From Elioraea sp. (GTDB taxonomy: Bacteria; Pseudomonadota; Alphaproteobacteria; Acetobacterales; Acetobacteraceae), in contig NZ_JBHYDW010000006.1 of NCBI RefSeq assembly GCF_051860475.1, positions 3,174 through 67,173 on the forward strand: DNA of 64,000 nt. The letters run 5' to 3'. A program made the translations under genes and the position numbers. Under the pieces are notes generated by a model. It worked only from the letters and a program-made list of their open reading frames with translations, had not been told where the DNA came from and ran no database searches. This document shows positions 36,985 through 59,974 of the stretch, in pieces (the first letter of the stretch is position 1; every line of letters begins with the position of its first letter).

Positions 36985-36996
36985 GGAGCCCAGCCC

Positions 36997-37779: not shown

Positions 37780-37814
37780 CGCATGCGCCCTCCCGTCGGG
37801 CGACAGGCAGCGCC

Positions 37815-38588
37815 GTGATCCCCCGCGCCGTCCGCTGGCTCAAGCGGCGGCTCAACAGCGAGCTCGCGGCGCGCGGCTATACCCTCTCGTGGCTGCCGCC
37901 ACAGGTACTGGCACGGCGTGAACACCAGCTCGCGCTCGATTTCGAGTTCCTCGCCGGGCATCTGATGCTGACGCGGCCGCGGCCGTTCTTTCTCGGCATC
38001 GGAGCGAATGACGGGGTCACCCACGACCCCCTCTACCCCTTCATCCGGGCTTTCAACTGGCCCGGCGTGATGGTCGAGCCGATCCCGGAGGCGTTCGCCG
38101 CACTCACGCGGAACTACGAGACCCTGCCGCACGTGACGCTGGTAAACGCAGCGGTGGGGCCGAGCGACGGCATGGGCACGATCTACTCGGTGGCGGCCTC
38201 GGACAAGGAGGTGGAGCGAATCTCGCTGCACTCCTCGTTCGACCGGGCGGTGCTGCTGAAGGCCCGCAGCTGGTATCCGGACATCGAGCAGCGCATCGTC
38301 GCCCGCGACGTCCCGGTGCTCTCCTTCGTGAGCGTGCTCGCGCACGCCAGGCGGCAGACGGTCGACGTCCTGAAGATCGACACCGAGGGCTACGATCTCG
38401 AGATCCTGCGGATGGTCGACCTGGCAACCCTCGCACCGAGCATCGTGATGGCCGAGCACGCCAACCTGTCGCGGGCGGACAAGGTCGCGATGGCCGAGCT
38501 GCTGCTTGGCCACGGCTACCGGGTGGCGATGACGTCACTCGATATGCTCGCCTATCGCGGCGCACGGTTCGACAAGCCGATGTCGTGA
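37815..38588 (+). CDS. FkbM-family methyltransferase
   Basis: FLGIGANDGVTHDP, GVMVEP, VDVLKIDTEGYD. Confidence 0.9.
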   Translation: MIPRAVRWLKRRLNSELAARGYTLSWLPPQVLARREHQLALDFEFLAGHLMLTRPRPFFLGIGANDGVTHDPLYPFIRAFNWPGVMVEPIPEAFAALTRNYETLPHVTLVNAAVGPSDGMGTIYSVAASDKEVERISLHSSFDRAVLLKARSWYPDIEQRIVARDVPVLSFVSVLAHARRQTVDVLKIDTEGYDLEILRMVDLATLAPSIVMAEHANLSRADKVAMAELLLGHGYRVAMTSLDMLAYRGARFDKPMS

Positions 38589-38643: not shown

Positions 38644-38699
38644 CTGACTGTCTTTCCGTGTTGCCCGCTCTCCCGCTTTCCCTATTTCCGGCTTTTGCG
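38644..38699 (-). repeat. 8-bp tandem array (parS-like), 7 degenerate units
   Basis: Minus strand cgcaaaag/ccggaaat/agggaaag/cgggagag/cgggcaac/acggaaag/acagtcag at the 3' end of the RHH gene. Confidence 0.65.
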
Positions 38700-39074
38700 C
38701 TCGTCGGTGATGTCGGCATCCCGCACCTCCACTCCGGCGAGGCGCAGCGCGAACAGGATCTGGTTGCGGATCGTCACCCCGCTCTCGGCATAGCGCCGGC
38801 GCAACTGGCGCAGCACGTAGTCCGGCACCTTGGTCGAGAGCGCCACCTCCGGGGCGGTGCGGCGCGAGACGCGCGCCGGCGGCGCGAGCAGCCCGGTCGC
38901 GGTCTCGGTGTTGATCGCGCGCACCCGGCCCGCGGCAACCGCCTCGCGGATCACCTCGGGCCGCTCGAGGCTCTCGGCGACCGCGAAGCGCGGATCGTCG
39001 GGCGCCACACGCGCGCGCGTCGCGGGCTCGATCACCGGCGGCTGAAGCCCCGGTCGGCGGGTCGTCTGGCTCAT
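38682..39074 (-). CDS. ParA partner, ribbon-helix-helix DNA-binding protein (ParG-like), 130 aa
   Basis: GAGGGGAGGG RBS before ATG 39074. C-terminal LSTKVPDYVLRQLRRRYAESGVTIRNQILFAL (beta-alpha-alpha). Directly downstream of parA. Confidence 0.72.
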   Translation of the reverse strand: MSQTTRRPGLQPPVIEPATRARVAPDDPRFAVAESLERPEVIREAVAAGRVRAINTETATGLLAPPARVSRRTAPEVALSTKVPDYVLRQLRRRYAESGVTIRNQILFALRLAGVEVRDADITDERKSRK

Positions 39075-39087
39075 CCCTCCCCTCCCC

Positions 39088-39759
39088 TCAGGCCGCCGCA
39101 TCCGCCGGCAGCGCGGCCAGCAGCCCGAGCATCTCGTCGAAGATCGCGGCGAAGTTCTGCGCGGCGTGGCTGTCGCGATCGTGCAGCGGCGGCACCCAGT
39201 GCGCGTAGCTCATCTCCTTCCACACCGTGCGTTCGCCGAAGCTCGCGGTGAGCACGCGCGCGCCGGCGCTCTCGTAGGCTTCGCGCAGGAAGCCCTCGAC
39301 GCGCGGGCGCACCGCGCCGGACGACGTGCGCACCATCAGCACGCCGCGGCCGATCGGCCGGCGCGCCACCGCCTCGGCCTCCTCGATCTGGCGCCAGGTC
39401 TCGATCCCGCCGCGGAAATCGTCCTCGCTCATCTGCGACGGCACGATCACCAGATCCGACAGCGCCATCGCCACCTGGGTGTCGTTGGTCGCCGCCCCCA
39501 TCAGGTCGATCACCACGGTGTCGTGGCGCGCGGCGAGATCGCGCACCAATACGCTGACGCGTCGTTCGCCATCCGGCACGGCGACCTCGACGCCCGCAAG
39601 TTCGGGGATGCGGGCGAAGAACCGCCCGAGCGGGCGGTTCGGATCGAGATCCATCGCCGCGACCGACCGGCCGCGCGCGACGAACTCGGCCACGGTGCAT
39701 TTCGCGAGCGTGGTCTTGCCGCTGCCGCCCTTCACCTGGGCGAAGGTGATGATCGCCAT
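39088..39759 (-). CDS. parA: ParA-family partition ATPase (short, type Ib)
   Basis: KGGSGKTT deviant Walker A, MDLDPN, VVIDL, LSDLVIVP. No N-terminal HTH. Confidence 0.9.
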   Translation of the reverse strand: MAIITFAQVKGGSGKTTLAKCTVAEFVARGRSVAAMDLDPNRPLGRFFARIPELAGVEVAVPDGERRVSVLVRDLAARHDTVVIDLMGAATNDTQVAMALSDLVIVPSQMSEDDFRGGIETWRQIEEAEAVARRPIGRGVLMVRTSSGAVRPRVEGFLREAYESAGARVLTASFGERTVWKEMSYAHWVPPLHDRDSHAAQNFAAIFDEMLGLLAALPADAAA

Positions 39760-39975: not shown

Positions 39976-40923
39976 ATGAGATTGATCGGCTACGCCCGCG
40001 TCTCGACCGCGGAACAGGATCTCGCCGCACAGCGCGCAGCCCTTGAAGCCGCCGGTTGCGCGGAGATCGTCGAGGAGACCGCCTCGGGAGCCGACCCCGG
40101 GCGCCCTGCGCTCGGTCGGCTGCTGGCTCGGATCGGCCGCGGCGACACCCTGGTCGTGGCTCGGCTCGACCGGCTGGCCCGCTCGCTCGCCCACCTGCTC
40201 GCCGTGATCGCTCAACTGCAGGCGAGGGGGGTGGGGTTTCGCTCCCTGTCGGACCCGATCGACACCGCGGGACCCTCGGGCACGCTCGTGCTGCAGATCC
40301 TCGGCGCGGTCGCGGAGTTCGAGCGGGCGCTGATCCGCGAGCGCACCCGCGCCGGGCTCGCCGCAGCGCGGGCGCGGGGCAGGCGAGGGGGCAATCCGGG
40401 GTTGGTGGCGCGCGATCCCGCCGCCATCGCCCGGCTGGCCCGGGCACGCGAGGACGCCCGACTCGCCCGCGCGCTACCGGCCGCCGAGACTTGGCTCGGC
40501 CCGGTCCGATGCCTGCGTCCGACCACCCCCTGGCCGGAAGTCGCGCGGACGGTGAACGCCGGTCTGCCGCCGGGCGCCTTGACGCTCTCCGTCGCACGCC
40601 TCAAGCGCCTCGCGCGCAGCTTCGTCTGCCATGGCTTGCTCGACGCCGCCGTGCTCACGCCGGCCCGGCGCCGGGGCAGGGCAGGGGGGCGGTTCCGGGC
40701 CATCGAGCTCGCCGCCGCCGCCTACCTGCGCGGCCGCCCCGACGCCACGCTCGCCGAGCTCGGCGCTGCGCTGCTACGCCTCGGCGTGCGCCCGCCGCGC
40801 GGCGGCGCGGCCTGGGCGCCGGCCTCGCTCAAGCGGTTGCGCGACCGCGGCCGGATGGTCGGGCTGACCGGAGTGCCGCCTGCGAGTTCTCCTTTACCCG
40901 CTGGTCGTGTCCCGCGAGGATAG
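39976..40923 (+). CDS. Serine recombinase (resolvase family) with extended C-terminus
   Basis: MRLIGYARVST, GDTLVVARLDRLARS, VAEFERALIRERT.AGL. Confidence 0.93.
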   Translation: MRLIGYARVSTAEQDLAAQRAALEAAGCAEIVEETASGADPGRPALGRLLARIGRGDTLVVARLDRLARSLAHLLAVIAQLQARGVGFRSLSDPIDTAGPSGTLVLQILGAVAEFERALIRERTRAGLAAARARGRRGGNPGLVARDPAAIARLARAREDARLARALPAAETWLGPVRCLRPTTPWPEVARTVNAGLPPGALTLSVARLKRLARSFVCHGLLDAAVLTPARRRGRAGGRFRAIELAAAAYLRGRPDATLAELGAALLRLGVRPPRGGAAWAPASLKRLRDRGRMVGLTGVPPASSPLPAGRVPRG

Positions 40924-40961: not shown

Positions 40962-41870
40962 ATGGTCAACCTGGAACGCTGGAAGCCGTCGCGCAGCCGG
41001 GCGGCCATCGAGCATCTCGCCGCCCCGGCGGTCTATCTGCTGAACCGGCCGCGCTTCGCTGGCGTCGGCCGGCTGATCTACGAGTTCGCATTGCGCTGCA
41101 ACGGCATCGGCAACAACGCCACCGGCCCCTCAGGGCTTGCGCGCGGCGAGGAGCGTTTCCTGCGCCGAGCGGCTCCGGGCTTCCGCACTGGCACTGTGCT
41201 GGATGTCGGCGCCAATGCAGGGGATTATGCCCGTTACGTCCGCAGCCTCGCTCCTGAGGCGCGCATCGTCGCGTTCGAGCCTCATCCACGCACATTCGCC
41301 AGGCTCCTGCGGGCCGCCGAGACGCATCGCTTCGAGGCGATCAACGTCGCGGTCAGCGACACCGCCGGAACGGCCAGCCTCTATGATTTCCCTGATACCG
41401 ACGGCTCCACCCAGGCGAGTCTCGATCCCGGTGTGATCATGCTTCATGGCGGGATGGCTCCGGTCAGCCATGAGGTGACGTGTACCACCCTGGATGCTTT
41501 CGCCGAGGAGCGGGACATCGACACCATCCATCTGCTCAAGATCGACACTGAGGGCTTCGACCTGAACGTGCTCAAGGGCGCGCGCCGGCTACTGGCCGAG
41601 GGCCGGATCGGGCTGATTCACTTCGAGTTCATCGGTTCGAACGTGGTCAGGCGGATCGCCATGCGTGACTTCTTCGACGTGCTTGAGGAAGGCGGGTATG
41701 GGATCGCGCGGATCTGTTTGAACGGGACGCTGCTGCCGCTCAGGGCCTATTCGCCAAAGTTCCACGAGATCTTCGTCCGCCACAATCTTGTTTCCTTCCC
41801 GCAGCGCTTCCCGATGACACCCGTGACAGCCGACTTCGCTGTGCGTCGCCACGAAAGCCAGACCTCATGA
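40962..41870 (+). CDS. FkbM-family methyltransferase
   Basis: VLDVGANAG, AFEPHP, IHLLKIDTEGFDLNVLKGA. Visibly lower GC than the neighbouring genes. Confidence 0.92.
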   Translation: MVNLERWKPSRSRAAIEHLAAPAVYLLNRPRFAGVGRLIYEFALRCNGIGNNATGPSGLARGEERFLRRAAPGFRTGTVLDVGANAGDYARYVRSLAPEARIVAFEPHPRTFARLLRAAETHRFEAINVAVSDTAGTASLYDFPDTDGSTQASLDPGVIMLHGGMAPVSHEVTCTTLDAFAEERDIDTIHLLKIDTEGFDLNVLKGARRLLAEGRIGLIHFEFIGSNVVRRIAMRDFFDVLEEGGYGIARICLNGTLLPLRAYSPKFHEIFVRHNLVSFPQRFPMTPVTADFAVRRHESQTS

Positions 41871-41988
41871 GCGATGCCGCGCGCACGCCGGCCCGGGTGT
41901 GACGGCTGGTAGTGCACCTCGCCCCCAGGACCGGCGACGGAGTTGCCGGTTAACCTCCGCGTGAGCCGGCTGTGGGAGTAGTCCGTCC

Positions 41989-42864
41989 GTGACCTCGCTC
42001 CATCCGTTCCTCTCTGTCCCGATCCGCGCGCTCTGCTGGCGGCCGCTCTGGGTACGCCACAGCCCGGCCTATGCCGAGGCCCCGCTCGCCACGCTCGGCC
42101 GCGCGCTGCGCTTCACCCTGGCCGAGCTCGGCGGGGGCGAGATCACCGCCCGCACACCGGACGGGCTGGTGCTCGCCACCATGCCGAACAACTTCAGCTC
42201 CTTCGCCATGGCGGTCGCCGGGGCGCGCGACCCGCTGATCTGGGCGTTCATCCGCCGCCGCCTGGGGCCGGGGGCGGTGGTCGTCGATGCCGGGGCGAAT
42301 GTCGGCAGCTACACCCTGCCGGCCGCCCGGCTGGTCGGTCCCGCGGGCCGGGTGATCGCCTTCGAGGCGCATCCGGTGACCTTCGGCTTCCTCGCCCGCA
42401 ACGTCGCCGCCAACGGGCTCGCCAACGTCACCGCGCTGAACCTCGCGCTCGGCGCGGGGCCGGGCCGGATCGCGATGGCGTTCAGCCCCGCCAATCCCGG
42501 CGAGACCCATGTCGCGACCGCCGCCGAGACGCGCACGACCGAGGTCGCGATGGTCCCGCTGGACGATGCCCTGGAAGGGCAGGGGCTCGGCGCGGTGGAC
42601 TACCTCAAGATCGACGTCGAGGGGTTCGAACTGCCGGTGCTGCACGGCGCGGCGCGGACGATCGCGGCGAGCCCCGGGATCGTCATCCAGACCGAGCTCC
42701 AGCCCCAGCACGCCGGCCGCTACGGCCACCGCATCGAGGACATCGCCGCCCTGCTGCGCGGCCTCGGGCTCGACCCGCATGGGCTCCGCCCTGACGGCGG
42801 CACGGTCCGGCTGGAGGGGACGCTGCGCGGCGACGTGCTCTGGATGCGGCCCCCGGCGACGTGA
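41989..42864 (+). CDS. FkbM-family methyltransferase
   Basis: VVDAGANVGSYT, AFEAHP, VDYLKIDVEGFELPVLHGA. Confidence 0.92.
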   Translation: MTSLHPFLSVPIRALCWRPLWVRHSPAYAEAPLATLGRALRFTLAELGGGEITARTPDGLVLATMPNNFSSFAMAVAGARDPLIWAFIRRRLGPGAVVVDAGANVGSYTLPAARLVGPAGRVIAFEAHPVTFGFLARNVAANGLANVTALNLALGAGPGRIAMAFSPANPGETHVATAAETRTTEVAMVPLDDALEGQGLGAVDYLKIDVEGFELPVLHGAARTIAASPGIVIQTELQPQHAGRYGHRIEDIAALLRGLGLDPHGLRPDGGTVRLEGTLRGDVLWMRPPAT

Positions 42865-45746: not shown

Positions 45747-45838
45747 ATGATGCGGCGCGGCCCGCTGCTGGTCCGTCCCCGATCACGCTGGACGAGGCCG
45801 AGGCCGCCCTCGCGGCCTCCCGTGACCGGCCGGCGTGA
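45747..45838 (+). pseudogene. Truncated/frameshifted VapB-like antitoxin tail
   Basis: MMRRGPLLV in one frame joins PITLDEAEAALAASRDRPA* in another. The stop overlaps the GTG of the PIN gene. Confidence 0.45.
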
Positions 45839-46302
45839 GCGCGCCGGCCGGACTGCTCGACAGCACCGTCGTCATCGCCTGCCTCGCCGAGGCGCACGAG
45901 CACCACGCCCCTTCGCTCACGCTGCTGGCCGAGGGGAACCCGCGGCGCTACGCCGTCGGCGCGCACAGCTACGCCGAGGCCTATGCGACGCTGACCCGGA
46001 CCGGACCGCCGGCACCGTTCCGCTTCACCGCTGCCGAGGCCTGGGCGGCGCTGCAAAGCCTGCGCGCCGTGACGGCGCTTGTCGGACTCACGCCGGCGCA
46101 GGGCTTCGATGTCGTGCGCGCCTATGCGGCGACGGACGGCATCGGCGCCCGGCTGTACGACGTCCTGATCGGACAGGTGGCGGTCGTCCATGGCATCCCG
46201 CTCCTGATCACCTGGAACACGCGCCACAGGACCGGGCTGTTCCCGGCCCTGACCGTGGCGAGCCCGGCGGAGCTTCTGGCGGACCGGCCGCGGCGGCGGT
46301 GA
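45835..46302 (+). CDS. vapC: PIN-domain protein (VapC-like toxin)
   Basis: LLDSTVVIA, YAEAYATLTR, LYDVLI, ITWNTRH: the PIN acidic active-site pattern. Confidence 0.85.
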   Translation: MSAPAGLLDSTVVIACLAEAHEHHAPSLTLLAEGNPRRYAVGAHSYAEAYATLTRTGPPAPFRFTAAEAWAALQSLRAVTALVGLTPAQGFDVVRAYAATDGIGARLYDVLIGQVAVVHGIPLLITWNTRHRTGLFPALTVASPAELLADRPRRR

Positions 46303-48624: not shown

Positions 48625-48933
48625 ATGATTCCCGAGCTCGATCAGCACCGCGCTGAAATTGCCGAACTCTGCCGCCGCTTCGGCGTCCGTCGGCTCGATG
48701 TGGTCGGTTCGGCGGCGCGGGGGACGGATTTCGATCCCGTCCGGTCGGACGTGGATTTCCTCGTCGAGTATGTGCCCGAGGCCACCCCCTCGCTCGGCGC
48801 CTTCTTCGGCCTGCGTGACGCACTCGCCAAGCTGCTCGGCCGGCCGGTCGACCTCATCATGGCCTCCGGGCTGCGCAATCCGTTCGTACGCGCCGAGATG
48901 GAGCGCGCCCGTACCCCGCTCTATGCGGGCTGA
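48625..48933 (+). CDS. mntA: Minimal nucleotidyltransferase (MNT antitoxin)
   Basis: VRRLDVVGSAARG.DF....SDVDFLVEY, LLGRPVDL. Confidence 0.88.
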   Translation: MIPELDQHRAEIAELCRRFGVRRLDVVGSAARGTDFDPVRSDVDFLVEYVPEATPSLGAFFGLRDALAKLLGRPVDLIMASGLRNPFVRAEMERARTPLYAG

Positions 48934-49276
48934 CCCGCGGGGCCTGCTGTGGGACGCGCACGATGCGGCCGAGACGGTCGCGGTGTTCATCCGCGGCCAC
49001 ACGCTCGCGGAGTATCGAGCGGACCGGATGTTGCGCTCCGCCGTCGAGCGCCAGTGCGAGGTGGTCGGCGAGGCCCTGAACCGCCTGGCGAAGGTCGCTC
49101 CCGACCTTGCCGCCCGCGTCCCGGGCCTCGCGCAGGCCGTCGCGTTCCGCAATCTGCTGATCCACGGCTATGCGGTGGTTGACGATGCGGTCGTCTGGCG
49201 GACCGTGCAGCAGGATCTCCCCGTGCTCTCCCGCGATCTCGCCGCCCTGCTGGCCGAGACCGGCCCCCAGGGCTAG
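48923..49276 (+). CDS. hepT: HEPN/DUF86 RNase toxin (HepT-like), 117 aa
   Basis: AVERQCEVVGEAL, FRNLLIHGY (RNxxxH motif), VVWRTV. Overlaps the MNT stop. Confidence 0.88.
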   Translation: MRADPRGLLWDAHDAAETVAVFIRGHTLAEYRADRMLRSAVERQCEVVGEALNRLAKVAPDLAARVPGLAQAVAFRNLLIHGYAVVDDAVVWRTVQQDLPVLSRDLAALLAETGPQG

Positions 49277-49295
49277 CAGGCGGGCAACGATCGTC

Positions 49296-50339
49296 ATGGA
49301 CGATCCGCCTCCCCGCCTCGATCCCCTGCCGCGCGCCGGCCTGCCCGGCTGGGCCGAGCCGCTGCTCGACCCGCGCGCCTTCTGGTCAGGTCGGATCTGG
49401 TACGACACCACGCTCGCGCATGCCCTGCCGCTCGGCGCCGAGCCGGTCGCCGCACGCTGCGGCGCCGGCGCCGTGCCGCTGCTCCGCACCGGCGAGGCGC
49501 TCCGCAGCCTGACCACGCCCTACACCCAGGACTGGCGCCCGCTTGGTCCTCCCGGGCTCGGCGCCACCGGCTGGCAGGACGCCGGGCAGGGCTTCGGCGC
49601 CCTGCTGCGGCTCCGCCCGCCCGTGCTGCTGGAGGCGATCGATCCCGCCGGCGCCTGGCTCGCCCCCTTTCTCGCCGGGCTGCGCGGCAGCGGCATCCGG
49701 TCGGCGCGGTTCGACCATGTCGGCGTCTGGCGCGAGACCCTGCCGGAGGGGCAGGGCTGGGAGGACTACCTCGCCGGCCGCCCCTCCAGCCTGCGCCATA
49801 CGGTCGAGCGCAAGGGGAAGCGGGCCGCGCGCGAAACCCGCTTCAGCCTGATCGCCGCCCCCGGTGCGGCGCTCGAGGCCGGGATCGAGGCGTTCCACGC
49901 GGTGCGTGCCGGCTCCTGGAAGCCCGCCGAACCCTTCCCGGACTTCGACGCCGCGCTGATGCGGGCCGCCGCCGCTGCCGGCGCGCTGCGACTCGGCGTG
50001 CTCACCCGAGTCGCCGACGACACGCCGCTCGCCGCGCAGTACTGGATCCTCGACCAGGGCGGGGCGCGCGCCACCGTGCCCAAGCTCTTCCACCTGGAGA
50101 CCGAGCGCACGGCCTCGCCCGGCACGGTGCTCACCGCCATGATGCTGCGCCATCTCATAACGGAGGACCGGGTGCGCACGCTCGACTTCGGCCGGGGCGA
50201 CGACGCCTACAAGGCGCACTGGGTCGCGGACCGGGTGCAGCTGATCGGCCTCGTTCTTGCCGATCCGCGCCACCCGGCCGGGCTGGCCGCGCTCGCGCGC
50301 CAGGCGGCGGGACGGCTGCTGCGTCGGATCCGCCGATGA
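49296..50339 (+). CDS. GNAT acyltransferase (CelD/BcsL-like), 347 aa
   Basis: WEDYLAGRPSSLRHTVERKGKR, LAAQYW, SPGTVL, LDFGRGDDAYKAHW. Confidence 0.85.
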   Translation: MDDPPPRLDPLPRAGLPGWAEPLLDPRAFWSGRIWYDTTLAHALPLGAEPVAARCGAGAVPLLRTGEALRSLTTPYTQDWRPLGPPGLGATGWQDAGQGFGALLRLRPPVLLEAIDPAGAWLAPFLAGLRGSGIRSARFDHVGVWRETLPEGQGWEDYLAGRPSSLRHTVERKGKRAARETRFSLIAAPGAALEAGIEAFHAVRAGSWKPAEPFPDFDAALMRAAAAAGALRLGVLTRVADDTPLAAQYWILDQGGARATVPKLFHLETERTASPGTVLTAMMLRHLITEDRVRTLDFGRGDDAYKAHWVADRVQLIGLVLADPRHPAGLAALARQAAGRLLRRIRR

Positions 50340-51475
50340 GGATCCTCTACAGCCACCGCATCCAGTCGCGCGACGGCCAGGGCGTGCATCTCGACGCCCT
50401 GGTCGCCGCGCTGCGGGCGGACGGCCACGAGGTGCGCGTGGTCGGGCCGTCCGCCTACGACCAGGCGGAGCTGGGGGGCGAGAGCCGGCTCGTGCCGCTG
50501 ATCCGCCGTCTGCTGCCGCGCTTCGCGGTCGAACTCCTGGAGCTCGCCTACAGCCTCCCCGCTTTCCTGAAGCTCGACCGGGCTGCACGCGAATTCACCC
50601 CGGATGCCCTCTACGAGCGCTACAACTTGTTCTACCTCGCAGGTGCGCTCGTGGCCCGTCGTCGGCGCCTGCCCTTCCTGGTCGAGGTGAACGCGCCGCT
50701 GGCCGAGGAGCGCGCGCGCTTCGGCGGCCTCGCGCTCAAGGGGCTGGCCCGCTGGTCCGAACGCTTCGTCTGGCGCCGCGCCGACCGGGTGCTTCCCGTC
50801 ACCGCGGTGCTGGGCGGGCACGTGACGGCCGCCGGGGTGCCGGCCGAGCGGATCGTCGTCATCCCGAACGGCATCGACCTGGAAGACTTCCCCGAGGTGC
50901 CTGCGGCGCGCCAGTCCGGCCCGGAGGCCGAGCTGGTGCTCGGCTTCGTCGGCTTCGTGCGCGACTGGCACGGGCTCGATGCCGTGGTGCGCGGCATCGC
51001 CGCCTGGGACGGCCCGACGCGGCTGAAGCTGCGCGTGGTGGGGGAGGGGCCGGCGCGGCCTGGGCTCGAACGCCTCGCCGCAGAGTTCGGCATCGCGGAT
51101 CGGGTGGAGTTCACCGGGCTCGCCAGGCGCGAGGCGATCCCCGGGCTCGTCGCCGGCTTCGACGTTGCGCTGCAGCCAGCCGTGGTGCCCTACGCCTCGC
51201 CCCTGAAGGTGTTCGAGTACATGGCCGCCGGGCGGGCGATCGTCGCGCCGGACCAGCCCAACATCCGCGAGGTGCTGGAGGACGGGCGCACCGCGATATT
51301 GTTTGACGTGAAACAGTCCGACGGGTTGTGGCAGGCGATCCGCCGCCTCGCCGCCGACCCGGCCCTGCGCGCCCGGCTCGGGCAGGCGGCGCGCGACGAG
51401 GTGATCGGCCGCGAGCGCACCTGGGCCGGCAATGCCCGGCGGGTGGCCGGGCTTGCCCGGGAGCTGGCGCGGTGA
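50336..51475 (+). CDS. Glycosyltransferase family 4
   Basis: MRILYSHRI.SRDGQGVH, LVEVNAPL, YASPLKVFEYMAAGRAIV. Confidence 0.93.
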   Translation: MRILYSHRIQSRDGQGVHLDALVAALRADGHEVRVVGPSAYDQAELGGESRLVPLIRRLLPRFAVELLELAYSLPAFLKLDRAAREFTPDALYERYNLFYLAGALVARRRRLPFLVEVNAPLAEERARFGGLALKGLARWSERFVWRRADRVLPVTAVLGGHVTAAGVPAERIVVIPNGIDLEDFPEVPAARQSGPEAELVLGFVGFVRDWHGLDAVVRGIAAWDGPTRLKLRVVGEGPARPGLERLAAEFGIADRVEFTGLARREAIPGLVAGFDVALQPAVVPYASPLKVFEYMAAGRAIVAPDQPNIREVLEDGRTAILFDVKQSDGLWQAIRRLAADPALRARLGQAARDEVIGRERTWAGNARRVAGLARELAR

Positions 51476-51477
51476 GC

Positions 51478-52392
51478 TCAGCGCACCTCGCCCGGCCCGA
51501 CCAGCACCACGACCGCGCCGCGGATCTCGTTGCCCTCCACCAGTACCGGCGTGGCGGTGCGGTTCTCGACGAAATGGGTGCCGCGCGGCATCAGGTTCTC
51601 GAACCGGTTGCCGGTCACCCGCAGGCTGGTGGTGGGGTGGCGCACCCCCTCGGCCCCGATCATCACCGCTGTGGTCGGATTGCCGTGATCGGGGCCCTTG
51701 CGCAGCACGGTGTTGCGCAGCAGCAGGTCGCCGCCATTGGGGATGTCGACCAGGTAGCTCGCCCGATTGCCCGGCGTGTCCAGGATCGCGCTGTCCTCGA
51801 TCTCGGTGGCGCGCGCGCGCGACTTCACATGGTGGCAGATCCGGGTGGCCTCGAACCGGCTGCGCCGGATCGCGACGAGCGCCCACTGCCCGGCATAGAG
51901 CCCATGGGCGCATTCGTGGATCAGCGCACCGTTGCCGACGAACACGCTGTCCTCGATCGTGAGCCGGGCCTCCGGCAGGCTGTGGTGGGTCAGGATGCCG
52001 TTCTGGTTGTCCTCGAAGCGCGACCGGACGATGCGCAGATCGCCCCCTTCGGCGCGGATGCCGGCGGCGTTGCCGCCCGCGAAGGCCGCGCCGCGGAAGG
52101 TCAGCCCGATCACCGTCACCCGCGGGGCGGCAATCACGAACAGCGCCTTCTGCGCGCAGATCGGCCCGGTGATCACGACCTCGCCACCCCCTGCCTCGAT
52201 CGTCAGGTCAGGGGCACGCCAGACCGCGCAGTCGCGGTAGAGGCCGGGCGCGATCACCACCCGGTCGCCCGGCTGGGCGACGCGCGCGGCCTGGCTCGGC
52301 ACGGTGAAGCGCTCGCCGGGGCCGACGCGCAGCGTCTCGGCCGCGGCCGGCGCGGTCAGCAGCAGGGCGAGCAGCAGGGCCAGACGGATCAT
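51478..52392 (-). CDS. Secreted right-handed parallel beta-helix protein (pectin-lyase-like fold), 304 aa
   Basis: Start MIRLALLLALLLTAPAAA (signal peptide). GDRVVIAPGLY, GNAAGIRAEGG, FEDNQNGIL, HGLYAG, GHHVKSRA-like CHHVKSRA, VDIPNGG. Confidence 0.82.
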   Translation of the reverse strand: MIRLALLLALLLTAPAAAETLRVGPGERFTVPSQAARVAQPGDRVVIAPGLYRDCAVWRAPDLTIEAGGGEVVITGPICAQKALFVIAAPRVTVIGLTFRGAAFAGGNAAGIRAEGGDLRIVRSRFEDNQNGILTHHSLPEARLTIEDSVFVGNGALIHECAHGLYAGQWALVAIRRSRFEATRICHHVKSRARATEIEDSAILDTPGNRASYLVDIPNGGDLLLRNTVLRKGPDHGNPTTAVMIGAEGVRHPTTSLRVTGNRFENLMPRGTHFVENRTATPVLVEGNEIRGAVVVLVGPGEVR

Positions 52393-52427
52393 CCGGTCGG
52401 TCCTTCGCAGCGGGGGATCGCCTGACC

Positions 52428-53558
52428 ATGCCTGCCGCGCCTGCCCGGGGTCCAGCCCCGCCGCCGGGAACGGCACCACTGCTGCTTCACGTCTTCCCGA
52501 CCTTCGCGATCGGCGGCGCCCAGGTGCGGTTCGCCGCGCTCGCCAACCGGTTCGGCGGCCGCTGGCGCCACGCCATCGTCGCGCTCGACGGCCGGGCAGA
52601 CTGCGCCGAGCGGCTGGAGCCAGGGGTCGCGTTCGCCGTGCTGCCGTCGCCGGTCGGGCCGGGCGACGGCCCTCTGCGCTTCCGGCGCATCCGGGGCTTC
52701 CTGCACCGGCTCGCCCCGGCGGTCATCATCACCAGCAACTGGGGCGCGATCGAGTGGGCGGCCGCCAACCTGATCCCGCCGCGCATCCGCCACCTCCACA
52801 CCGAGGACGGCTTCGGTCCAGACGAAGCCGGCGGGCAGAAGCCGCGAAGGGTGCTGTTCCGCCGGCTCGTCCTGCGCCGCTCGACCGTCGCTCTGCCCTC
52901 GCTGACACTGCTCAAGGCCGCGCGCGAGACCTGGCGGCTGCCCGGGGAGCGGCTGCACTACATCCCGAACGGGCTCGACCTCGCCCGCTTTCACCCCGAA
53001 GGTCCGCGCGCCACGCTTGCCCCGCCCGGCGACGGCCCGGTGATCGGCACGGTCGCGCGGCTGCGCGCCGAGAAGAACCTCGCCCGGCTGCTGCGCACCG
53101 CCGCGCTGCTGCACCGCGACGGGCTCGCGTTCCGCCTGGTCGTGATCGGCGACGGGCCGGAGGAGGAGGCGCTGAAGGCACTCGCGGCCGCGCTCGGCAT
53201 CGGCGGGATCACCCGCTTCGCTGGCCATGTGCCTGACCCGGCCGCCGCCTACCGGGCGATGGACGTGTTCGCGCTCTCCTCCGACACCGAGCAGATGCCG
53301 TTCTCGGTGATGGAGGCGATGGCGACCGGCCTGCCGGTCGCGTCCACCGATGTCGGCGATGTTGCAGCCATGCTGGGCGCGGAGAGCCGCCCGTTCCTCG
53401 CGCCGAAGGACGACCGCGCGCTCGCCGCCGCGCTGCGGCCGCTGCTCGCGGAGGCGCCGCTGCGCCACCGGCTCGGCGCGGCCAACCGCGCCCGCGCCGA
53501 GGCCGCCTACGACCAGGAAGCCATGTTCCAGGCCTATGCGCGGTTGATCGACGGATAG
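52428..53558 (+). CDS. Glycosyltransferase family 4
   Basis: HVFPTFAIGGAQVR, IGTVARLRAEKN, SSDTEQMPFSVMEAMA. Confidence 0.92.
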   Translation: MPAAPARGPAPPPGTAPLLLHVFPTFAIGGAQVRFAALANRFGGRWRHAIVALDGRADCAERLEPGVAFAVLPSPVGPGDGPLRFRRIRGFLHRLAPAVIITSNWGAIEWAAANLIPPRIRHLHTEDGFGPDEAGGQKPRRVLFRRLVLRRSTVALPSLTLLKAARETWRLPGERLHYIPNGLDLARFHPEGPRATLAPPGDGPVIGTVARLRAEKNLARLLRTAALLHRDGLAFRLVVIGDGPEEEALKALAAALGIGGITRFAGHVPDPAAAYRAMDVFALSSDTEQMPFSVMEAMATGLPVASTDVGDVAAMLGAESRPFLAPKDDRALAAALRPLLAEAPLRHRLGAANRARAEAAYDQEAMFQAYARLIDG

Positions 53559-53567
53559 GAGGGACGG

Positions 53568-54548
53568 GTGCTCGAGGTCGTCATCCCCGCCTACAACGCC
53601 GCCCCGTTCCTGCGCGAGACCATCGAGAGCCTCGCTGCGCAGACCCGTCCGGCCGATCTCGTCACCATCGTCGACGACCGCTCCACCGACGGCACCGGCG
53701 ACCTCGCCCGCGCGCTCGTGGCCGACCTCTCGCCGCGCCTGGCGATCCGGGTGCTCGACAATGCCGGCCCGCAAGGGCCGGCCGCCGCGCGCAACACCGC
53801 CCTCCGCGCCTCCACGGCCGATGTGATCGCGCTGATGGACTCGGACGATCTGGCCGAGCCCGACCATCACCGGACCCTGCTCGACCTGATCGAAACCGCG
53901 CCCGACATCGTGCTCGGCTTCGGCAACAGCCTGGTGTTTCGGGGAGTGGAGGTGCTGATCCCGGACATGCACGCCAAGAGCGGGATCAGCGGGTTTCCCG
54001 CCGAGGAGCTCGGCCCGGACCGGCTTACCCTGGGTGAGCGCATGTTCGAGGTCATGCTCGGCGCGGGCATGTTCTCCACCTCGGCCTGCGCGTTCCGCCG
54101 CGAGGCCGCGCGCGAGGCCGGGCTGTTCGACGAGACGCTGCGCTACAGCGAGGACACCGACCTGTTCCTGCGCCTGACCCTGCTCGGCCGTTTCGCCTTC
54201 GCCCGGGCGATCATCACGCGCAAGCGGGTGCACGGGACCAACCTGGTCGGCCACAGCAAGCTGCATTTCTGCCGTGGCACGGCGCTCGCGCTGTCGCGGC
54301 TGGCCGACCGTGCCGCGGCCGGGGATCCGGTTGCGCGCCACCTCTCCGCACCGCGCCGGGCCGCGCTCGCCGAGGGGCTGCGGCGGGCGATGTATGGCTG
54401 GCTCTACGCGGCCTCCTGGGAAACCCCGCGCGTCTATCGCGAGGCGGCCGCTGCCGCGCGCCACGCGGGCCTGGGCCGGATGGCGCGCGATCCCAAGCAT
54501 CTCGCCCGGCTGCTGATCGCCCCGGTGTGGCGGCCCGAGACCCGCTGA
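53568..54548 (+). CDS. Glycosyltransferase family 2
   Basis: VVIPAYNAA, IVDDRSTDGT, ALMDSDD, SEDTDLFLRL. Confidence 0.92.
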   Translation: MLEVVIPAYNAAPFLRETIESLAAQTRPADLVTIVDDRSTDGTGDLARALVADLSPRLAIRVLDNAGPQGPAAARNTALRASTADVIALMDSDDLAEPDHHRTLLDLIETAPDIVLGFGNSLVFRGVEVLIPDMHAKSGISGFPAEELGPDRLTLGERMFEVMLGAGMFSTSACAFRREAAREAGLFDETLRYSEDTDLFLRLTLLGRFAFARAIITRKRVHGTNLVGHSKLHFCRGTALALSRLADRAAAGDPVARHLSAPRRAALAEGLRRAMYGWLYAASWETPRVYREAAAAARHAGLGRMARDPKHLARLLIAPVWRPETR

Positions 54549-54557
54549 GCCCGGCCA

Positions 54558-55283
54558 ATGTCGCTCCAGGCGCTCGCGACCACGCTGCTGCTGCCCCCGG
54601 TCGGGCTGCTGCTCGGCGCGCTCGTGCTGCTCGCCTGGCGCGGCCGCATTGCCCGGTTGCTGACCGCGCTGCTGCTGCTCGCCGCCCTTGGGGTCTCGAC
54701 GCCGTATGCCGCCGGCACGCTGCGGCTTTCGCTGGAGCGGCTGCTGCCCGAGGCGACGGTGGACGGCGCCGGCGCCATCGTGGTGCTGAGCGGCGACATC
54801 GCCCATACGCGCGACGGGATCGAACTCGGCCCGCTGACGCTCGAGCGGATGCGCACAGGTGCCGAGCTGCACCGCCTCACCCGACTGCCCCTGCTGGTGA
54901 CCGGCGGAACGCTGTCGCGCCGCCACACGGTGCCGGTCGCGGAGCTGATGCGCGCGGCCTATGCCGACGAGTTCGGCATCGCCGTCCGCTGGGTCGAGCC
55001 GGAGGCACGCGACACCCGCGACAACGCCGAGCTGAGCGCCGCGCTGCTGCGCGCGGCCGGGATCAACCGGGCCTACGTGGTCACCCATGGCTGGCACCTG
55101 CCGCGCGCGCTCGCTTCCTTCGCGCGGACCGGCGTCGCGCCCGTGCCTGCGCCGGTGCGGCTTGGCCCGGTGCCGGACGGCAGCCCGGCCGACTGGGTGC
55201 CAAGCCCGCGCGCCGCGCTGGAAAGCTGGTATTTCCTGCGCGAGTGGGCCGGCATCCTGGTCTATCGCCTGCGCGACGGATGA
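54558..55283 (+). CDS. YdcF/ElyC-family (DUF218) membrane protein
   Basis: AIVVLSG, ERMRTGA.L, LLVTGG, ARDTRDNA, VTHGWHLPRA, REWAG. Confidence 0.88.
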   Translation: MSLQALATTLLLPPVGLLLGALVLLAWRGRIARLLTALLLLAALGVSTPYAAGTLRLSLERLLPEATVDGAGAIVVLSGDIAHTRDGIELGPLTLERMRTGAELHRLTRLPLLVTGGTLSRRHTVPVAELMRAAYADEFGIAVRWVEPEARDTRDNAELSAALLRAAGINRAYVVTHGWHLPRALASFARTGVAPVPAPVRLGPVPDGSPADWVPSPRAALESWYFLREWAGILVYRLRDG

Positions 55284-55303
55284 GGCGTCAGTAGAGTCCC
55301 AAC

Positions 55304-56236
55304 TCAGACCAGGCCGAGCCGGCGCGCCTCCTGGCGCGGCACCGCTGGCGGGGAGGGGATCAGCAGGATGCCGTCGCGGTCGGGCTCCACCTTGGCTTCC
55401 GGATAGACCGCGAGCGCCAGTTTCAGCGCCTCGAGAAAGGTCGGCTTGAGCTGGCGGGCAAAGCGGAAGCCCGCGCCGAACTGGCCGTGGATCGCGCTCC
55501 AGCTGACCGCCGTGGGCTTGGCGAGCGCGTGCAGCCGGTAGGCGAGCCAGATATAGACGTCGATCGCCAGGCTGCGGTTGCTGATCGCCTTGATCGCCTC
55601 CTCGCGCACGGGCACCGGATGGTCACGCAAGGACCGCCAGAACCCCTCGTCGAGCCGTACCTTGTCCTGCCAGAGTGAGGGCTGGTCCGCGTCGTCGATC
55701 ACCCCGGCGAAGCTGATCGCGTCCTGCACGAAGGCGCCGTTGTGGCGCGCCTCGGCGCCGTTCTCGCGGGCGAAGAAGAAGGTCAGCCGGCAGGCCGAGA
55801 TGCGCCGCGCCTGCTCGGTGACCAACTGGTAGGTGCGCCCGCCGGTGGTGAGCGACATCCGCCCCATCCAGGCTTTCATCGACCGGCCGAGCTCGACCTC
55901 GGGCGAGCCCGTCCGCACCGCCTCGGTCTGGAGGTAGAGCAGGATCAGCCGGGCGAAGGAGCCGTAGGGCACGCCGACGAACTGGCCCTTGCGGTCGCGC
56001 CCCGACTCAACGAGCAGCGTGGTGCGGTGGCCGTCGCGCCGCCACAGCACCTCCTCGACGCGCTTGTGCGGCAGCGAGGTCATGGCGAACCCGGCATGGG
56101 TGATGCCGAGGCGGTTCTCCTCCTCGGCCATCACTGTTGCCGCGGCATCGATCGCCTGACGGTCGGCCTTGCTGGCGGCGAGCGCGCGGGCCCCATCCAG
56201 GCCATGCTCGCGGATCAGCCGATGCACATCACCCAT
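55304..56236 (-). CDS. repA: Plasmid replication initiator RepA (RepA_C-like), 310 aa
   Basis: Start MGDVHRLI at 56236. SLPH, GVPYGSFARLILLYLQTEAVRT.S.EVELGRS, HPVPV, S.AIDVYIWLAYRL, QFG.GF, AVYPEA. Confidence 0.9.
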   Translation of the reverse strand: MGDVHRLIREHGLDGARALAASKADRQAIDAAATVMAEEENRLGITHAGFAMTSLPHKRVEEVLWRRDGHRTTLLVESGRDRKGQFVGVPYGSFARLILLYLQTEAVRTGSPEVELGRSMKAWMGRMSLTTGGRTYQLVTEQARRISACRLTFFFARENGAEARHNGAFVQDAISFAGVIDDADQPSLWQDKVRLDEGFWRSLRDHPVPVREEAIKAISNRSLAIDVYIWLAYRLHALAKPTAVSWSAIHGQFGAGFRFARQLKPTFLEALKLALAVYPEAKVEPDRDGILLIPSPPAVPRQEARRLGLV

Positions 56237-56276
56237 GGCGGCGGATAACGCCCCAGCTCGTTCCCTGAATGCAAGG

Positions 56277-56461
56277 GGGACTCTACTGACACAGCCTAAT
56301 AGCAAGGTATTAGAAGGGTATTATTAGAGTCGTCAGTAGAGTCCCCTGGATAACCCCGAGTCGTGTCAGCAGGGTCCCAACCCGCGTCAGGAGAGTCCCC
56401 GGGATATTTCGGTAGCCTTGTGGATAACTCGGCGGACACAGGGCGTCAGTAGAGTCCCAAC
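56277..56461. other. Iteron-type replication origin (oriV)
   Basis: Iteron GTCAGTAGAGTCCC at 56277-56290 (inverted), 56332-56345, 56365-56378, 56386-56399 and 56445-56458, plus an extra copy at 55287-55300. AT-rich 56296-56329. Perfect DnaA box TGTGGATAA at 56419-56427. Confidence 0.85.
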
Positions 56462-56582
56462 CGCATGCCTGCGCCCCCGAGTCGCCGCATGGCCGCCGTT
56501 CCTCACCCGTGGCAGTCTCCGCTCGCCGCGGCGGTGCCGCTCCCCGCCGGCATCAGCCGGCCGCGGCTCCGATGAGGCCCGC

Positions 56583-57716
56583 ATGAGGATCGCGATCGTC
56601 GGCCCGTTCTTCTGGCCGCAGCTGGAAGGCGTGGAGAAGGTGATGCTGAACCACGCCCGCCACCTCGCCCGGCGCGGCCACGAGGTGCATGTGGTGGCGA
56701 GCGCGCTGCAGTTCCCCAAGGGCGAATTCGTCGGCCTGCCCGAGCGCGAGCAGCACGAGGGCTTCACCATCCACCGCATGCGCGTGCTGATGCGGGCCCC
56801 CAACTGGCGCTTCTTCTATCTCGCCAATGGCGGGGTCGTGATCCGCGGCATCGGCGCGACGCTGCGGCGGATCGATCCGGAAATCCTGCACGCACACCAG
56901 ATCGCCGCCCCGGCCTGGGCCTTCGCGGCGGCGTGGTATGCGCGCACCCGCCGGCGGAGGTTCTTCTACTCCCCACATCACCACCCGGATGCGGTGCTCG
57001 ACCGGTGGTTCCGCAACCTGCTGCTGCACGGGCTCAACCGGCTGCCGCTCTCGATCGCGCGCCGGGTGTTCCACCTGACCGCCAACGACTACGAGCCCTT
57101 TGCACGCGAATACCCCTATGTCCCCCGCGCGCGCTTCGCGGTGCTGCCGAACGGGGTCGATCCGGCGCCGCTTGTGCATGTCCCGCCGGCGCCCGGCTCG
57201 CTCCGGCTGCTGTTCGTCGGCCGGGTCGATGACCGGCGCAAGGGCTTCGACCTCTTGCGCCGCGCCTTCGCCGAGACCCGCCGGCCGGGCTGGGTGCTGA
57301 CCGTGATCGGCCGCGTCTCGGATGCCACCCGGGAGGCGCTCGCCGCCGAGTTCGGCCCGGCGGTGCGCGTGCTCGGTCCGGTGGACGAGCGGGCGCTCGA
57401 GCGCGAATACGCCGCCTGCGACCTGTTCGTCATGCCCTCGCGCTACGAGGGTTTCGGCATGCCGTACATCGAGGCAATGCGTTACGGTGCAGCGGTGATC
57501 GGCACGGCGGTCGGCGGCGTGCCCGAGGTGGTGCCGCCGGGGACCGGGGTGCTGGTCGCGGTCGATGACGGCGCCGGGCTCGCCGCGGCCCTCGCCCGGC
57601 TGGGCAACGACCCGGACGAACGGGCACGGCTGGGCGAGGCCGGGCGGGCCTGGGCGGCGCGGTTCCACTGGGACCGCATCGTCGACATGCTGGAGGCGGA
57701 GTACGCCGCAGCATGA
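56583..57716 (+). CDS. Glycosyltransferase family 4, 377 aa
   Basis: MRIAIVGPFFWP...GVE, LLFVGRVDDRRKG, PSRYEGFGMPYIEAM. Confidence 0.93.
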   Translation: MRIAIVGPFFWPQLEGVEKVMLNHARHLARRGHEVHVVASALQFPKGEFVGLPEREQHEGFTIHRMRVLMRAPNWRFFYLANGGVVIRGIGATLRRIDPEILHAHQIAAPAWAFAAAWYARTRRRRFFYSPHHHPDAVLDRWFRNLLLHGLNRLPLSIARRVFHLTANDYEPFAREYPYVPRARFAVLPNGVDPAPLVHVPPAPGSLRLLFVGRVDDRRKGFDLLRRAFAETRRPGWVLTVIGRVSDATREALAAEFGPAVRVLGPVDERALEREYAACDLFVMPSRYEGFGMPYIEAMRYGAAVIGTAVGGVPEVVPPGTGVLVAVDDGAGLAAALARLGNDPDERARLGEAGRAWAARFHWDRIVDMLEAEYAAA

Positions 57717-59974
57717 CCGGCGATGCGGCGGGGGGGAGGGGGCACGTGCGTGTCCTGCACATCTACCGGCGCTTCCACCCGGACTACACCGGCGACGGGA
57801 TCTATTTCACCCGGCTGATCCCGCTGATCGCCGAGCACGCGGTGGACGGCGAGGTGCTGGTGCACGAGACCGACCCGGGCGAGGGGCCGGCGACGGTGCA
57901 GCACCGCGGCGTCACCGTGCACTACCTCGCCAGGACCTATGGCCGGGTCTCGGCGCTCAACCTCGCCCGCTGGCTGATCCGCAACATCTGGCGCTTCCAG
58001 CTCATCCACCTCCATTCGCATGTCGACCGCACCTTCCTCACCTACGCGCTCGCGCGCGCCTGCGGCCGCCGCGTGCTGTTCTCCTGCACGCTCGACGACA
58101 GCCCGAGCCAGCTGCTTGAGCAGTACCGCCCGCGCTACCGGCGCCTCGTGCGCGCGCTGATGCGCACGATCGACCGGTTCGTGGTGATCAGCCCGCAGCT
58201 CCTGCGCCGGTCGCTCGAGATCGTGCCGCGCCCGCGCACCTGGTTCGTCCCCCAGGGCGGGGTGCTGGAGGCGGCCGAGCACAACGCGGAGGACCGCGCG
58301 CGGCTGCGCGCCGAGCTCGGCTTCAGCCCGGACGACGTGGTGCTGCTGAATGTCGGCTCGCTCTCGCGGCGCAAGAACATCGCCTGGCTGATCGACGCGC
58401 TCGCGCTGATCCCCGATCCCGCGGTGCGGCTGGTGGTGGTCGGGCCCGCGCTCGAGCCCGACTACACCGCCGAGCTCGAGCAGAAGATCTGCACCCACGG
58501 GCTTGGTGGCCGGGTCGTGCTGGCCGGGTTCCAGGACCGCACCGACGCCTTCTACGCCGCGGCGGACGCCTTCGTGTTCGCCTCGACCGCGGAAGGCTTC
58601 CCGAACGTCTATGTCGAGGCGATGGCGCACGGGCTGCCGATCATCACCCGGTTCCTGCCGGGGCTCACCGACTTCATCATCTCGCACGGCGAGAATGGCT
58701 TCCTCGCCCACCAGCCCGGCCAGTTCGTCGAGGCGGTGCTGGCGCTGCGCGACACGCCGGGGCTTGCCCGGCGGCTGGGCGCGGCCAGCCGGCGCTTCGC
58801 CGAGCGGAATCTCGACCTCAGCCGGATCGCCGGCGCCTATGCCATGCTCTACCGCGCGCCGCGCGGGCCCGGGCCGGACGCCTCGGCCGCCTTCCCGGAC
58901 CTCAGGCCGCGCTTCACCCGCGATCTCGCCCAGGGTCCGGCGGCGATCGGACTCGCGGAGTTCGACACGCCCGCGGACTGGCCGCCGATGCTGCAGGTGG
59001 TGATCGACACCGAGGCCGCCTTCGAGTGGGACAAGGGCACCTACACCGACACCGGCAAGGTCGCGCCGACCCGCGGGCTTCAGGTCAATCTCGACGTGTT
59101 CCGCCGCTACGGCGTGCTGCCCTGCCTGGTGGTCGACACCCCGGTGGCGAGCCAGGAGGAGAGTGCGGGGATCATCCGCGGGCTCGCCGCCGAGGGCTGT
59201 GAGATCGGCGTCCATCTCCATCCCTGGAGCGCGCCGCCGGTGGTCGAGCCGAAGGACGACTGGCACTCCTTCTCGGGCAATCTCGGGCCGTGGCTCGAAC
59301 GCACCAAGCTCGAGGCGCTGACCCGCCAGGTGACGGCCCTGCTCGGCGCGCGCCCGCGCATCTTCAAGGCCGGGCGGTACGGGCTCAGCGCCGACACGGT
59401 CGAGCTGCTCGAGACGCTCGGCTTCGAGATCGATCTCAGCGTCTGCCCGTTCTACGACTACGCGCCGATGGGCGGGCCCGACTTCCGCCGCTTCACCGCC
59501 CGGCCCGGCTGGCTCGGCGCGAACCGGCGCATCCTGTCGCTGCCGACCACGGCCGGGCCGATCGGCTGGCTCGCCGGGCAGGCCGGCACGCTCGGCGCGC
59601 TCGCGCGGAGTCCGCTCGGCCGGCTGCTGCCGATCAGCCGTCTGGCCGCGCGCGCCAATGCGGTCTATCCGCTCAGGCTCTCGCCCGAGGGCAGCAGCTT
59701 CGCGCAGATGCGCGAGCTCACCGAGCGGCGGCTGCACCAGGGCCTGCGCGTGTTCACGCTGACCCTGCACAGCCCGACCCTGATGCCGGGCAACACCCCC
59801 TATACCCGCACCGAGGCCGAGCTCGCCGGGCTGCTGGACACGATCGACCGCTATCTCGGCTTCTTCCGCGACACGCTCGGCGGCCGTTTTACCACGCCGT
59901 CGGAGCTGCACGCGCGGCTGAGCGCCTTCGCCGGCCGCGCGCCCGCCCCTCCGGTTGCGGCGGCGGCGGACTGA
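57713..59974 (+). CDS. Fusion of a GT4 glycosyltransferase and a WalW-like polysaccharide deacetylase (753 aa)
   Basis: N-terminal half has NVGSLSRRKN and STAEGFPNVYVEAMA. C-terminal half has VVIDTE, EIGVHLHPW, FKAGRYG and LTLHSPTLMPG.TPY. Confidence 0.85.
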   Translation: MTGDAAGGRGHVRVLHIYRRFHPDYTGDGIYFTRLIPLIAEHAVDGEVLVHETDPGEGPATVQHRGVTVHYLARTYGRVSALNLARWLIRNIWRFQLIHLHSHVDRTFLTYALARACGRRVLFSCTLDDSPSQLLEQYRPRYRRLVRALMRTIDRFVVISPQLLRRSLEIVPRPRTWFVPQGGVLEAAEHNAEDRARLRAELGFSPDDVVLLNVGSLSRRKNIAWLIDALALIPDPAVRLVVVGPALEPDYTAELEQKICTHGLGGRVVLAGFQDRTDAFYAAADAFVFASTAEGFPNVYVEAMAHGLPIITRFLPGLTDFIISHGENGFLAHQPGQFVEAVLALRDTPGLARRLGAASRRFAERNLDLSRIAGAYAMLYRAPRGPGPDASAAFPDLRPRFTRDLAQGPAAIGLAEFDTPADWPPMLQVVIDTEAAFEWDKGTYTDTGKVAPTRGLQVNLDVFRRYGVLPCLVVDTPVASQEESAGIIRGLAAEGCEIGVHLHPWSAPPVVEPKDDWHSFSGNLGPWLERTKLEALTRQVTALLGARPRIFKAGRYGLSADTVELLETLGFEIDLSVCPFYDYAPMGGPDFRRFTARPGWLGANRRILSLPTTAGPIGWLAGQAGTLGALARSPLGRLLPISRLAARANAVYPLRLSPEGSSFAQMRELTERRLHQGLRVFTLTLHSPTLMPGNTPYTRTEAELAGLLDTIDRYLGFFRDTLGGRFTTPSELHARLSAFAGRAPAPPVAAAAD

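Follow-up and report, generated by a model that had tools for sequence, protein, structure and literature searches.

Known exosortase clusters and iteron replicons

The presence of exosortase gene clusters on plasmids was noted as early as 2006. Plasmid pDV1 of Desulfovibrio vulgaris Hildenborough carries a large EPS cluster that includes an EpsH/exosortase homologue, together with the genes for most of the PEP-CTERM proteins of the cell (Haft et al., 2006, PMC1569441). The Elioraea locus that we describe here resembles pDV1 in its combination of an exosortase/EPS cluster with PEP-CTERM genes on a probable plasmid, but pDV1 comes from another phylum and has ~152 genes, amongst them nif, T3SS and CRISPR genes, and the likeness concerns the cargo. 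Within PLSDB, 7 of 72,556 plasmid records contain an XrtA homologue, which is annotated as xrtA in six of the seven; the annotated records belong to Vibrio alfacsensis (174-221 kb), Alteromonas mediterranea (~600 kb) and Sphingomonas parapaucimobilis (880 kb). The annotated matches reach 35-41% identity over about half of XrtA, and the replicons are much larger than the contig considered here.

Iteron-type replication by initiators of the RepA_C family is likewise established. In the island SGI1, a RepA_C initiator is combined with AT-rich DNA, four iterons and a single DnaA box, and their replication function has been proven by deletion; the island is integrated at trmE and replicates solely once a helper plasmid induces its excision (PMC7433901). 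The oriV of SGI1 lies downstream of rep and its iterons are unrelated, whereas the main array in Elioraea lies upstream of repA. RepA proteins that are 59-61% identical to the Elioraea protein occur on two complete, circular plasmids, unnamed3 of Roseomonas mucosa AD1 (NZ_CP025191, 137.9 kb) and p2 of Azospirillum sp. TSA2s (NZ_CP039644, 351.6 kb). Both have nearly the same iteron (GGTCGGTAGAGTCC; common core GTC[A/G]GTAGAGTCC) and the same layout, with a direct array, inverted copies before repA and ParA nearby; Azospirillum p2 also has one iteron right past the repA stop, as in Elioraea. Neither plasmid is amongst the PLSDB XrtA matches, whereas the Elioraea replicon sits inside an XrtA cluster and its closure into a circle is deduced from the contig ends.

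Chromids, as Harrison et al. are said to have described them in 2010, are secondary replicons with plasmid-type replication and a host-like composition. The Elioraea unit shares with them its plasmid-type rep and par genes, a GC content within ~1% of that of the genome, and a cargo that is chromosomal in two congeners (G002 and G004, see below). It differs in being small (~70 kb) and in its gene content, in which no essential housekeeping gene was seen and the XrtA system is itself not a housekeeping function; its status as a separate replicon is presumptive. No new principle is involved: exosortase clusters on plasmids and iteron replicons of the RepA_C type are already known. Because exosortase/EPS clusters on plasmids were noted in 2006 (PMC1569441), the surprise is also smaller than the initial annotation of the locus had implied.

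An intact replication module in the Elioraea cluster

The analyzed stretch of DNA (the window; 64,000 nucleotides) corresponds to positions 3174-67173 of contig C6, which has 69,203 bp and belongs to a draft genome of Elioraea sp. of 4.72 Mb in 324 contigs (G000). Unless a contig is named, positions refer to the window, and the features are collected in Table 1.

The sole RepA_C gene of the genome is repA. Its product matches Pfam PF04796 with an E-value of 3.8e-23 and 83.1 bits, against a cut-off of 26; no NCBIfam match and no solved structure were found for it. The iteron GTCAGTAGAGTCCC, when up to two mismatches are allowed, occurs six times in the 64-kb window, with every copy within 55287-56458. 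The chance expectation for the window is 0.21, and none of 100 shuffles reached six copies. Genome-wide, with at most one mismatch, the motif is confined to the replication module and to one isolated copy on contig C47. The DnaA box is the only perfect one in the window (expected number 0.05), and the AT-rich tract ranks among the four 60-nt stretches of the window with the lowest GC. The initial annotation had proposed an intact repA accompanied by an AT-rich tract, a perfect DnaA box and five adjacent iterons, four direct and one inverted; the profile score, the motif statistics and the GC dip bear out this description, to which a sixth, direct copy is added that follows the repA stop at the left edge of the region delimited at the time.

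The outermost two iterons match each other over 20 nt. A reading of these identical repeats around repA as insertion scars was rejected, because the downstream iteron also occurs in Azospirillum p2 and in all four Elioraea species compared below. An initiator above its cut-off, at least three direct repeats beyond chance, an AT-rich tract with a DnaA box and homologues on circular plasmids together characterize an iteron-type RepA_C replicon, and all of them are present here. Judged by these features and by the conservation described below, the segment from 55284 to ~56475 is an intact iteron-type replicon of the RepA_C family that looks functional.

Table 1. Positions of the features discussed in the text (window coordinates unless a contig is given).
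Feature	Position	Strand	Remarks
MazE-like/PemK toxin-antitoxin pair	contig C6 1203-1767		just left of the window; adjoins xrtA
xrtA-epsI fusion gene, 5' part	1-262 (whole gene: contig C6 1900-3435)	-	TIGR03109, 282 bits vs cut-off 208
XrtA-type EPS genes: stp1 glycosyltransferase, FemAB, deacetylase, ATPase, outer-membrane protein, tyrosine kinase, chain-length determinant, export protein	6295-19735	-	profile matches
Short Bac_transf sugar transferase, PrsK, PrsR, PrsT, XrtA-associated O-ligase-like protein	20022-28667	+	
Small parA partner, ParG/ParB-like (putative)	38682-39101	-	downstream of parA; kept beside ParA in relatives
ParA partition ATPase	39088-39759	-	83-84% identity in E. tepidiphila and E. 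rosea
Serine recombinase, resolvase domain with C-terminal extension	39976-40923	+	
PIN-domain (VapC-like) toxin	45835-46302	+	
MntA nucleotidyltransferase/HepT toxin-antitoxin pair	48625-49276	+	
Glycosyltransferase block around the replicon	49170-59974	mixed	GNAT-like, three stp2/stp3-like GT4, GT2, DUF218
NosD-like gene in the block	51478-52479	-	
Direct iteron 4 nt past the repA stop, left cassette edge	55287-55300 (feature 55284-55303)	+	motif search
repA, RepA_C-family replication initiator, 310 aa	55304-56236	-	PF04796; 61% identity to Roseomonas mucosa plasmid RepA
Inverted iteron, ~40 nt before the repA ATG	56276/56277-56290	-	motif search; place kept in four species
AT-rich tract, presumed DNA-unwinding element	56280-56339	none	GC 37.5-42.5% vs 72% overall
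Four direct iterons upstream of repA	56332, 56365, 56386, 56445 (array 56329-56461)	+	spacing 33, 21, 59 nt
Perfect DnaA box TTATCCACA	56419-56427	-	between third and fourth upstream direct iterons
Right part of the glycosyltransferase block	within 49170-59974		after repA and origin: GT4, then 753-aa GT4 protein
IS110-family element, left end	contig C6 68762-69203		right of the window
tRNA-Arg(CCG) sites	G002 contig C6 (L036:2291-2367); G000 contig C91 (L039:9437-9513)		

The exosortase cargo and the maintenance genes

The replication module was said to lie between glycosyltransferase genes. This is nearly right, as a GT2 gene is found on its left and a GT4 gene on its right, with a DUF218 gene as an additional left-hand neighbor. 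The wider surroundings make up an XrtA/PEP-CTERM system. By the TIGR03109 profile, the xrtA-epsI fusion is present as a single copy in the genome; the window holds only its 5' part, since the gene extends across the left border. PrsK, PrsR and PrsT each score above their cut-off, and their genes on contig C6 are the only ones of the genome, while the EPS ATPase and the tyrosine kinase score slightly under theirs. The contig further holds many glycosyltransferases, a flippase and an epimerase, and it encodes at least eight PEP-CTERM proteins. Exosortase A, PrsK/R/T, system-specific EPS genes and several PEP-CTERM substrates are hence all found on contig C6.

The initial annotation called this system complete, which is slightly too strong: XrtA, PrsK/R/T and the EPS genes are on the contig, but the priming sugar transferase that scores above the cut-off of TIGR03013 is encoded on contig C26 (19196-20428). 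The only sugar transferase of contig C6 is the short Bac_transf enzyme, and in the whole genome no protein exceeds the cut-off of the TIGR03108 amidotransferase profile. A crude motif count places at least 12 PEP-CTERM-like genes on other contigs. Contig C26 shows synteny with the chromosomal DNA that flanks the EPS block in the congener G002.

Two further groups of genes lie within the cluster. A gene for a sulfite-oxidase/SorA-like molybdoenzyme (7957-9318, minus strand) is inserted amongst the EPS genes, and blastn finds no homologue in the matching gap of two other Elioraea species (G005 and G009). Four FkbM-family methyltransferase genes (36985-38588 and 40962-42864) surround the parA-resolvase pair, which suggests a methylated sugar in the polymer.

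The maintenance functions comprise the ParA ATPase with its small partner, the resolvase, two toxin-antitoxin pairs (PemK/MazE and MntA/HepT) and a PIN toxin gene. The resolvase and the toxin-antitoxin modules of the window were correctly recognized at the outset; the PemK/MazE pair lies outside the window. The proposed pairing of ParA with an RHH protein holds for ParA itself and for a partner that is conserved beside it in relatives; the partner has no Pfam match, and its assignment to the RHH type is putative. Conjugation or mobilization genes were not seen on contig C6.

Contig ends that fit a circle

The last 448 nt of contig C6 are the left end of an IS110-family element (DEDD_Tnp_IS110). 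The right end of this element is seen in contigs C196 and C238, where a REP-like module that starts with CGCTCT comes after it, and base 1 of contig C6 begins in exact register after the IS110 right end, in an orientation that fits closure. The REP-like sequence forms a hairpin pair behind both copies whose right end is assembled, and the left end of the element, CCCTCACCCTGACCC, is the reverse complement of the REP tail, GGGTCAGGGTGAGGG. Contig ends in ...GTTGGTAT were considered as an alternative right end; this was ruled out by the pairing of contigs through synteny, which leaves the form seen in C196 and C238. Contig C6 has no terminal overlap and no 31-mers in common with other contig ends, and two exact-pattern scans of metagenome contigs for its right and left ends gave no match.

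The gene order in related species can be compared with that of the contig. In G001, another Elioraea species with this RepA, one contig joins the orthologues of the last and the first genes of contig C6 within 1.3 kb. The gene order of G005, on two contigs that sum to 62 kb, and that of G009, on three, are compatible with the same circle, broken at a different place in each. Altogether, eight cluster contigs of four Elioraea species contain little besides homologues of the cluster and IS sequences, and no core chromosomal flank was recognized on them; several stretches, for example one of 8.4 kb on contig C33 of G005, are without assigned origin. A T1SS ABC transporter gene, likewise of unassigned origin, is located at the end of contig C51 of G001. 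The GC content is 72.1% for contig C6 and 71.0% for the genome, a match that fits long residence but would also fit a chromosomal location.

The simplest reading of these ends is a circle of ~70 kb with one IS110 insertion, which would make contig C6 extrachromosomal. The genome contains five copies of the element, with five left flanks, and synteny with relatives pairs three of the four other copies (C176-C196, C70-C238 and C206-C182), which leaves the copy at C95 unpaired. As the middle of the element is missing from the assembly and no partner was found for the C95 copy, contig C6 could also be part of a larger replicon, flanked by two IS copies in direct orientation. This would be the case if a plasmid by descent had been integrated here as a cointegrate via IS110 copies, for example at C95, with its replicon intact but silent or redundant. 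Such a cointegrate predicts equally well that both ends of contig C6 abut the same type of IS in direct orientation, and it could account for the absence of a synteny partner for the C95 copy in the assembly. We nevertheless regard it as unlikely. It requires one event more than a plain IS insertion between genes that are adjacent in relatives, and searches for a full copy of the element found none, either in 30 genomes from the family or in nine Elioraea congeners; given its absence from these congeners, any integration would be recent, and the long-term conservation of RepA would be left unexplained.

A conserved cassette in four Elioraea species

The RepA proteins of G001, G005 and G009 are 93-94% identical to that of G000, and identities across all four species range from 91 to 96%. 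Close relatives found by RepA are E. tepidiphila DSM 17972, Elioraea sp. Yellowstone and one Elioraea MAG. Pairwise dN/dS amongst the four species is 0.09-0.18 at dS ~0.3, values that indicate that repA is under purifying selection. The six iterons hold their position in all four species, with spacings of 33, 21 and 59-60 nt in the direct array, and the DnaA box is perfect in G000, G001 and G005 and has one mismatch in G009.

The likeness between the four species ends directly outside both terminal iterons, where the flanking DNA diverges. The neighbors of the cassette are DUF218 and GT4 in G000 and G001, while a galE-like gene comes next in G005 (with DUF218) and in G009; the piece between the terminal iterons is the sole part held together in all four genomes. 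Comparison of 55284-56475 with contigs C39 of G005 and C310 of G009 indicates that the cassette has shifted its place within the cluster, and G009 has 58 extra nt between the repA stop and the downstream iteron.

Linkage of RepA and XrtA in other Acetobacteraceae

The association of this replicon type with the exosortase system extends beyond Elioraea. A RepA of ~81% identity occurs with XrtA and the whole PrsKRT/EPS set on a single 117-kb scaffold of Crenalkalicoccus roseus, and the same holds for one 74.7-kb contig of MAG D14. The Crenalkalicoccus scaffold additionally holds metabolic genes and a tyrosine integrase, which makes an integrative life style possible for some members, and a tyrosine integrase is also present on the contig of MAG D14. 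In MAG B12 the linkage of RepA and XrtA on single contigs is found twice. The two contigs concerned, C380 and C258 of bin B12_bin-0097 (G042; 35 kb and 194 kb, RepA at 80-81%), may stem from two strains that share the bin or from two such replicons. E. rosea has the resolvase, ParA, its partner, RepA and DUF218 in a row next to EPS-type genes, with XrtA on another draft contig. The link between RepA and XrtA is not universal, since other genomes with a RepA at 75-80% identity have no homologues of contig C6 genes within 10 kb of it.

Two congeners that lack this RepA, G002 and G004, have a chromosomal counterpart of the cluster. Their xrtA lies on contigs of 1.20 Mb and 1.60 Mb, and the PrsKRT/EPS block lies on other large contigs (685 kb in G002), where the XrtA-type EPS genes start directly beside tRNA-Arg(CCG). 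In G000 the same tRNA gene, on contig C91, is followed by unrelated genes and by no XrtA-type cluster. Neither a RepA remnant nor iterons were found at the chromosomal cluster of G002 and G004.

A position beside a tRNA gene is a classic island site, and it raises the question of whether the Elioraea unit is an SGI1-like integrative island, chromosomal by default and excised by a recombinase, with RepA and the iterons serving transient replication only. The replicon of SGI1, with its RepA_C protein, four iterons, DnaA box and AT-rich DNA, replicates after excision only (PMC7433901), and the tyrosine integrases that share a contig with RepA and XrtA in Crenalkalicoccus and MAG D14 would suit such an element. 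In contig C6 itself, however, there is a serine recombinase only, without a tyrosine integrase and without a tRNA gene, so that the pairing of an integrase with chromosomal att junctions that marks SGI1-like islands is absent. In G002, the far border of the cluster also showed no att-like repeat of the tRNA-Arg 3' end, and the eight cluster contigs of four species, some stretches of which are unassigned, have no recognizable chromosomal junction. In addition, the genes for partition, for the PIN toxin and for the two toxin-antitoxin pairs suit a stable plasmid life. An integrative island is even less probable than a cointegrate.

Finally, the module could be an inactive relic of a plasmid that inserted long ago into a chromosomal EPS cluster, as its position amid glycosyltransferase genes and a composition equal to that of the genome might suggest, but this is very improbable given an intact reading frame with dN/dS of 0.09-0.18 over a synonymous divergence of ~0.3, six iterons and a DnaA box (perfect in three of four species) that were kept while nearby intergenic DNA diverged, and a RepA ~81% identical in other genera that is still linked to XrtA.

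A probable plasmid with the only exosortase system of the cell

The explanation that we favor, with a probability of roughly 0.6, is that a working iteron theta replicon of the RepA_C family maintains contig C6 as a low-copy plasmid of ~70 kb, on which the sole XrtA system of the cell is carried. The proposal that matrix synthesis, protein sorting and their regulator share a secondary replicon or an integrated plasmid is in this respect supported by the conserved replication module, its circular-plasmid type, the linkage to XrtA and the fitting contig ends.

By analogy with known iteron systems, RepA monomers would bind the four direct iterons and, jointly with host DnaA bound to the single DnaA box, would open the adjacent AT-rich tract. 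The inverted iteron overlies the presumed repA promoter and is likely an autorepression operator, at which RepA would repress its own gene. The iteron past the repA stop is part of the conserved layout, and its probable role is copy control by pairing of origins. ParA and its partner, the resolvase, PemK/MazE, MntA/HepT and the PIN toxin would most likely help to maintain the plasmid, the circle of which would be closed through one IS110-family element. This plasmid would then provide the only XrtA-EpsI, the only PrsK/PrsR/PrsT and the XrtA-type polysaccharide genes of the cell, along with at least eight PEP-CTERM proteins. Since other PEP-CTERM genes and one priming transferase sit elsewhere in the genome, the two parts would depend on each other, which would favor retention of the plasmid. 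Within one Elioraea clade, the unit appears to have been inherited mainly vertically.

A broader view can be offered as tentative. In this account, which covers Elioraea, Crenalkalicoccus and uncultured genera, a small RepA_C 'matrix replicon' lineage has perhaps co-diverged with its Acetobacteraceae hosts, each cell having its only XrtA/PrsKRT system on the replicon, and in one genus the system may have switched between the replicon and a chromosomal site beside tRNA-Arg. The intact cassette might likewise represent a naturally mapped minimal replicon: a 1.2-kb piece between two identical iterons has alone been kept through the rearrangements of its surroundings, so that nature would in effect have delimited the minimal unit. 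Genetic tools for Acetobacteraceae might be built on this sharply bounded cassette as a candidate minimal replicon.

Should contig C6 be a plasmid, these hot-spring and wastewater-type bacteria could lose, or be cured of, the ability to form flocs and biofilms, a trait that would be held in place by partition and toxin-antitoxin genes and by mutual dependence with the PEP-CTERM genes on other contigs. The cultured strain E. tepidiphila DSM 17972 would be suited to testing the plasmid reading. Elioraea as a genus may moreover offer a natural comparison, in which the same XrtA system is found on a plasmid in some species and on the chromosome in others.
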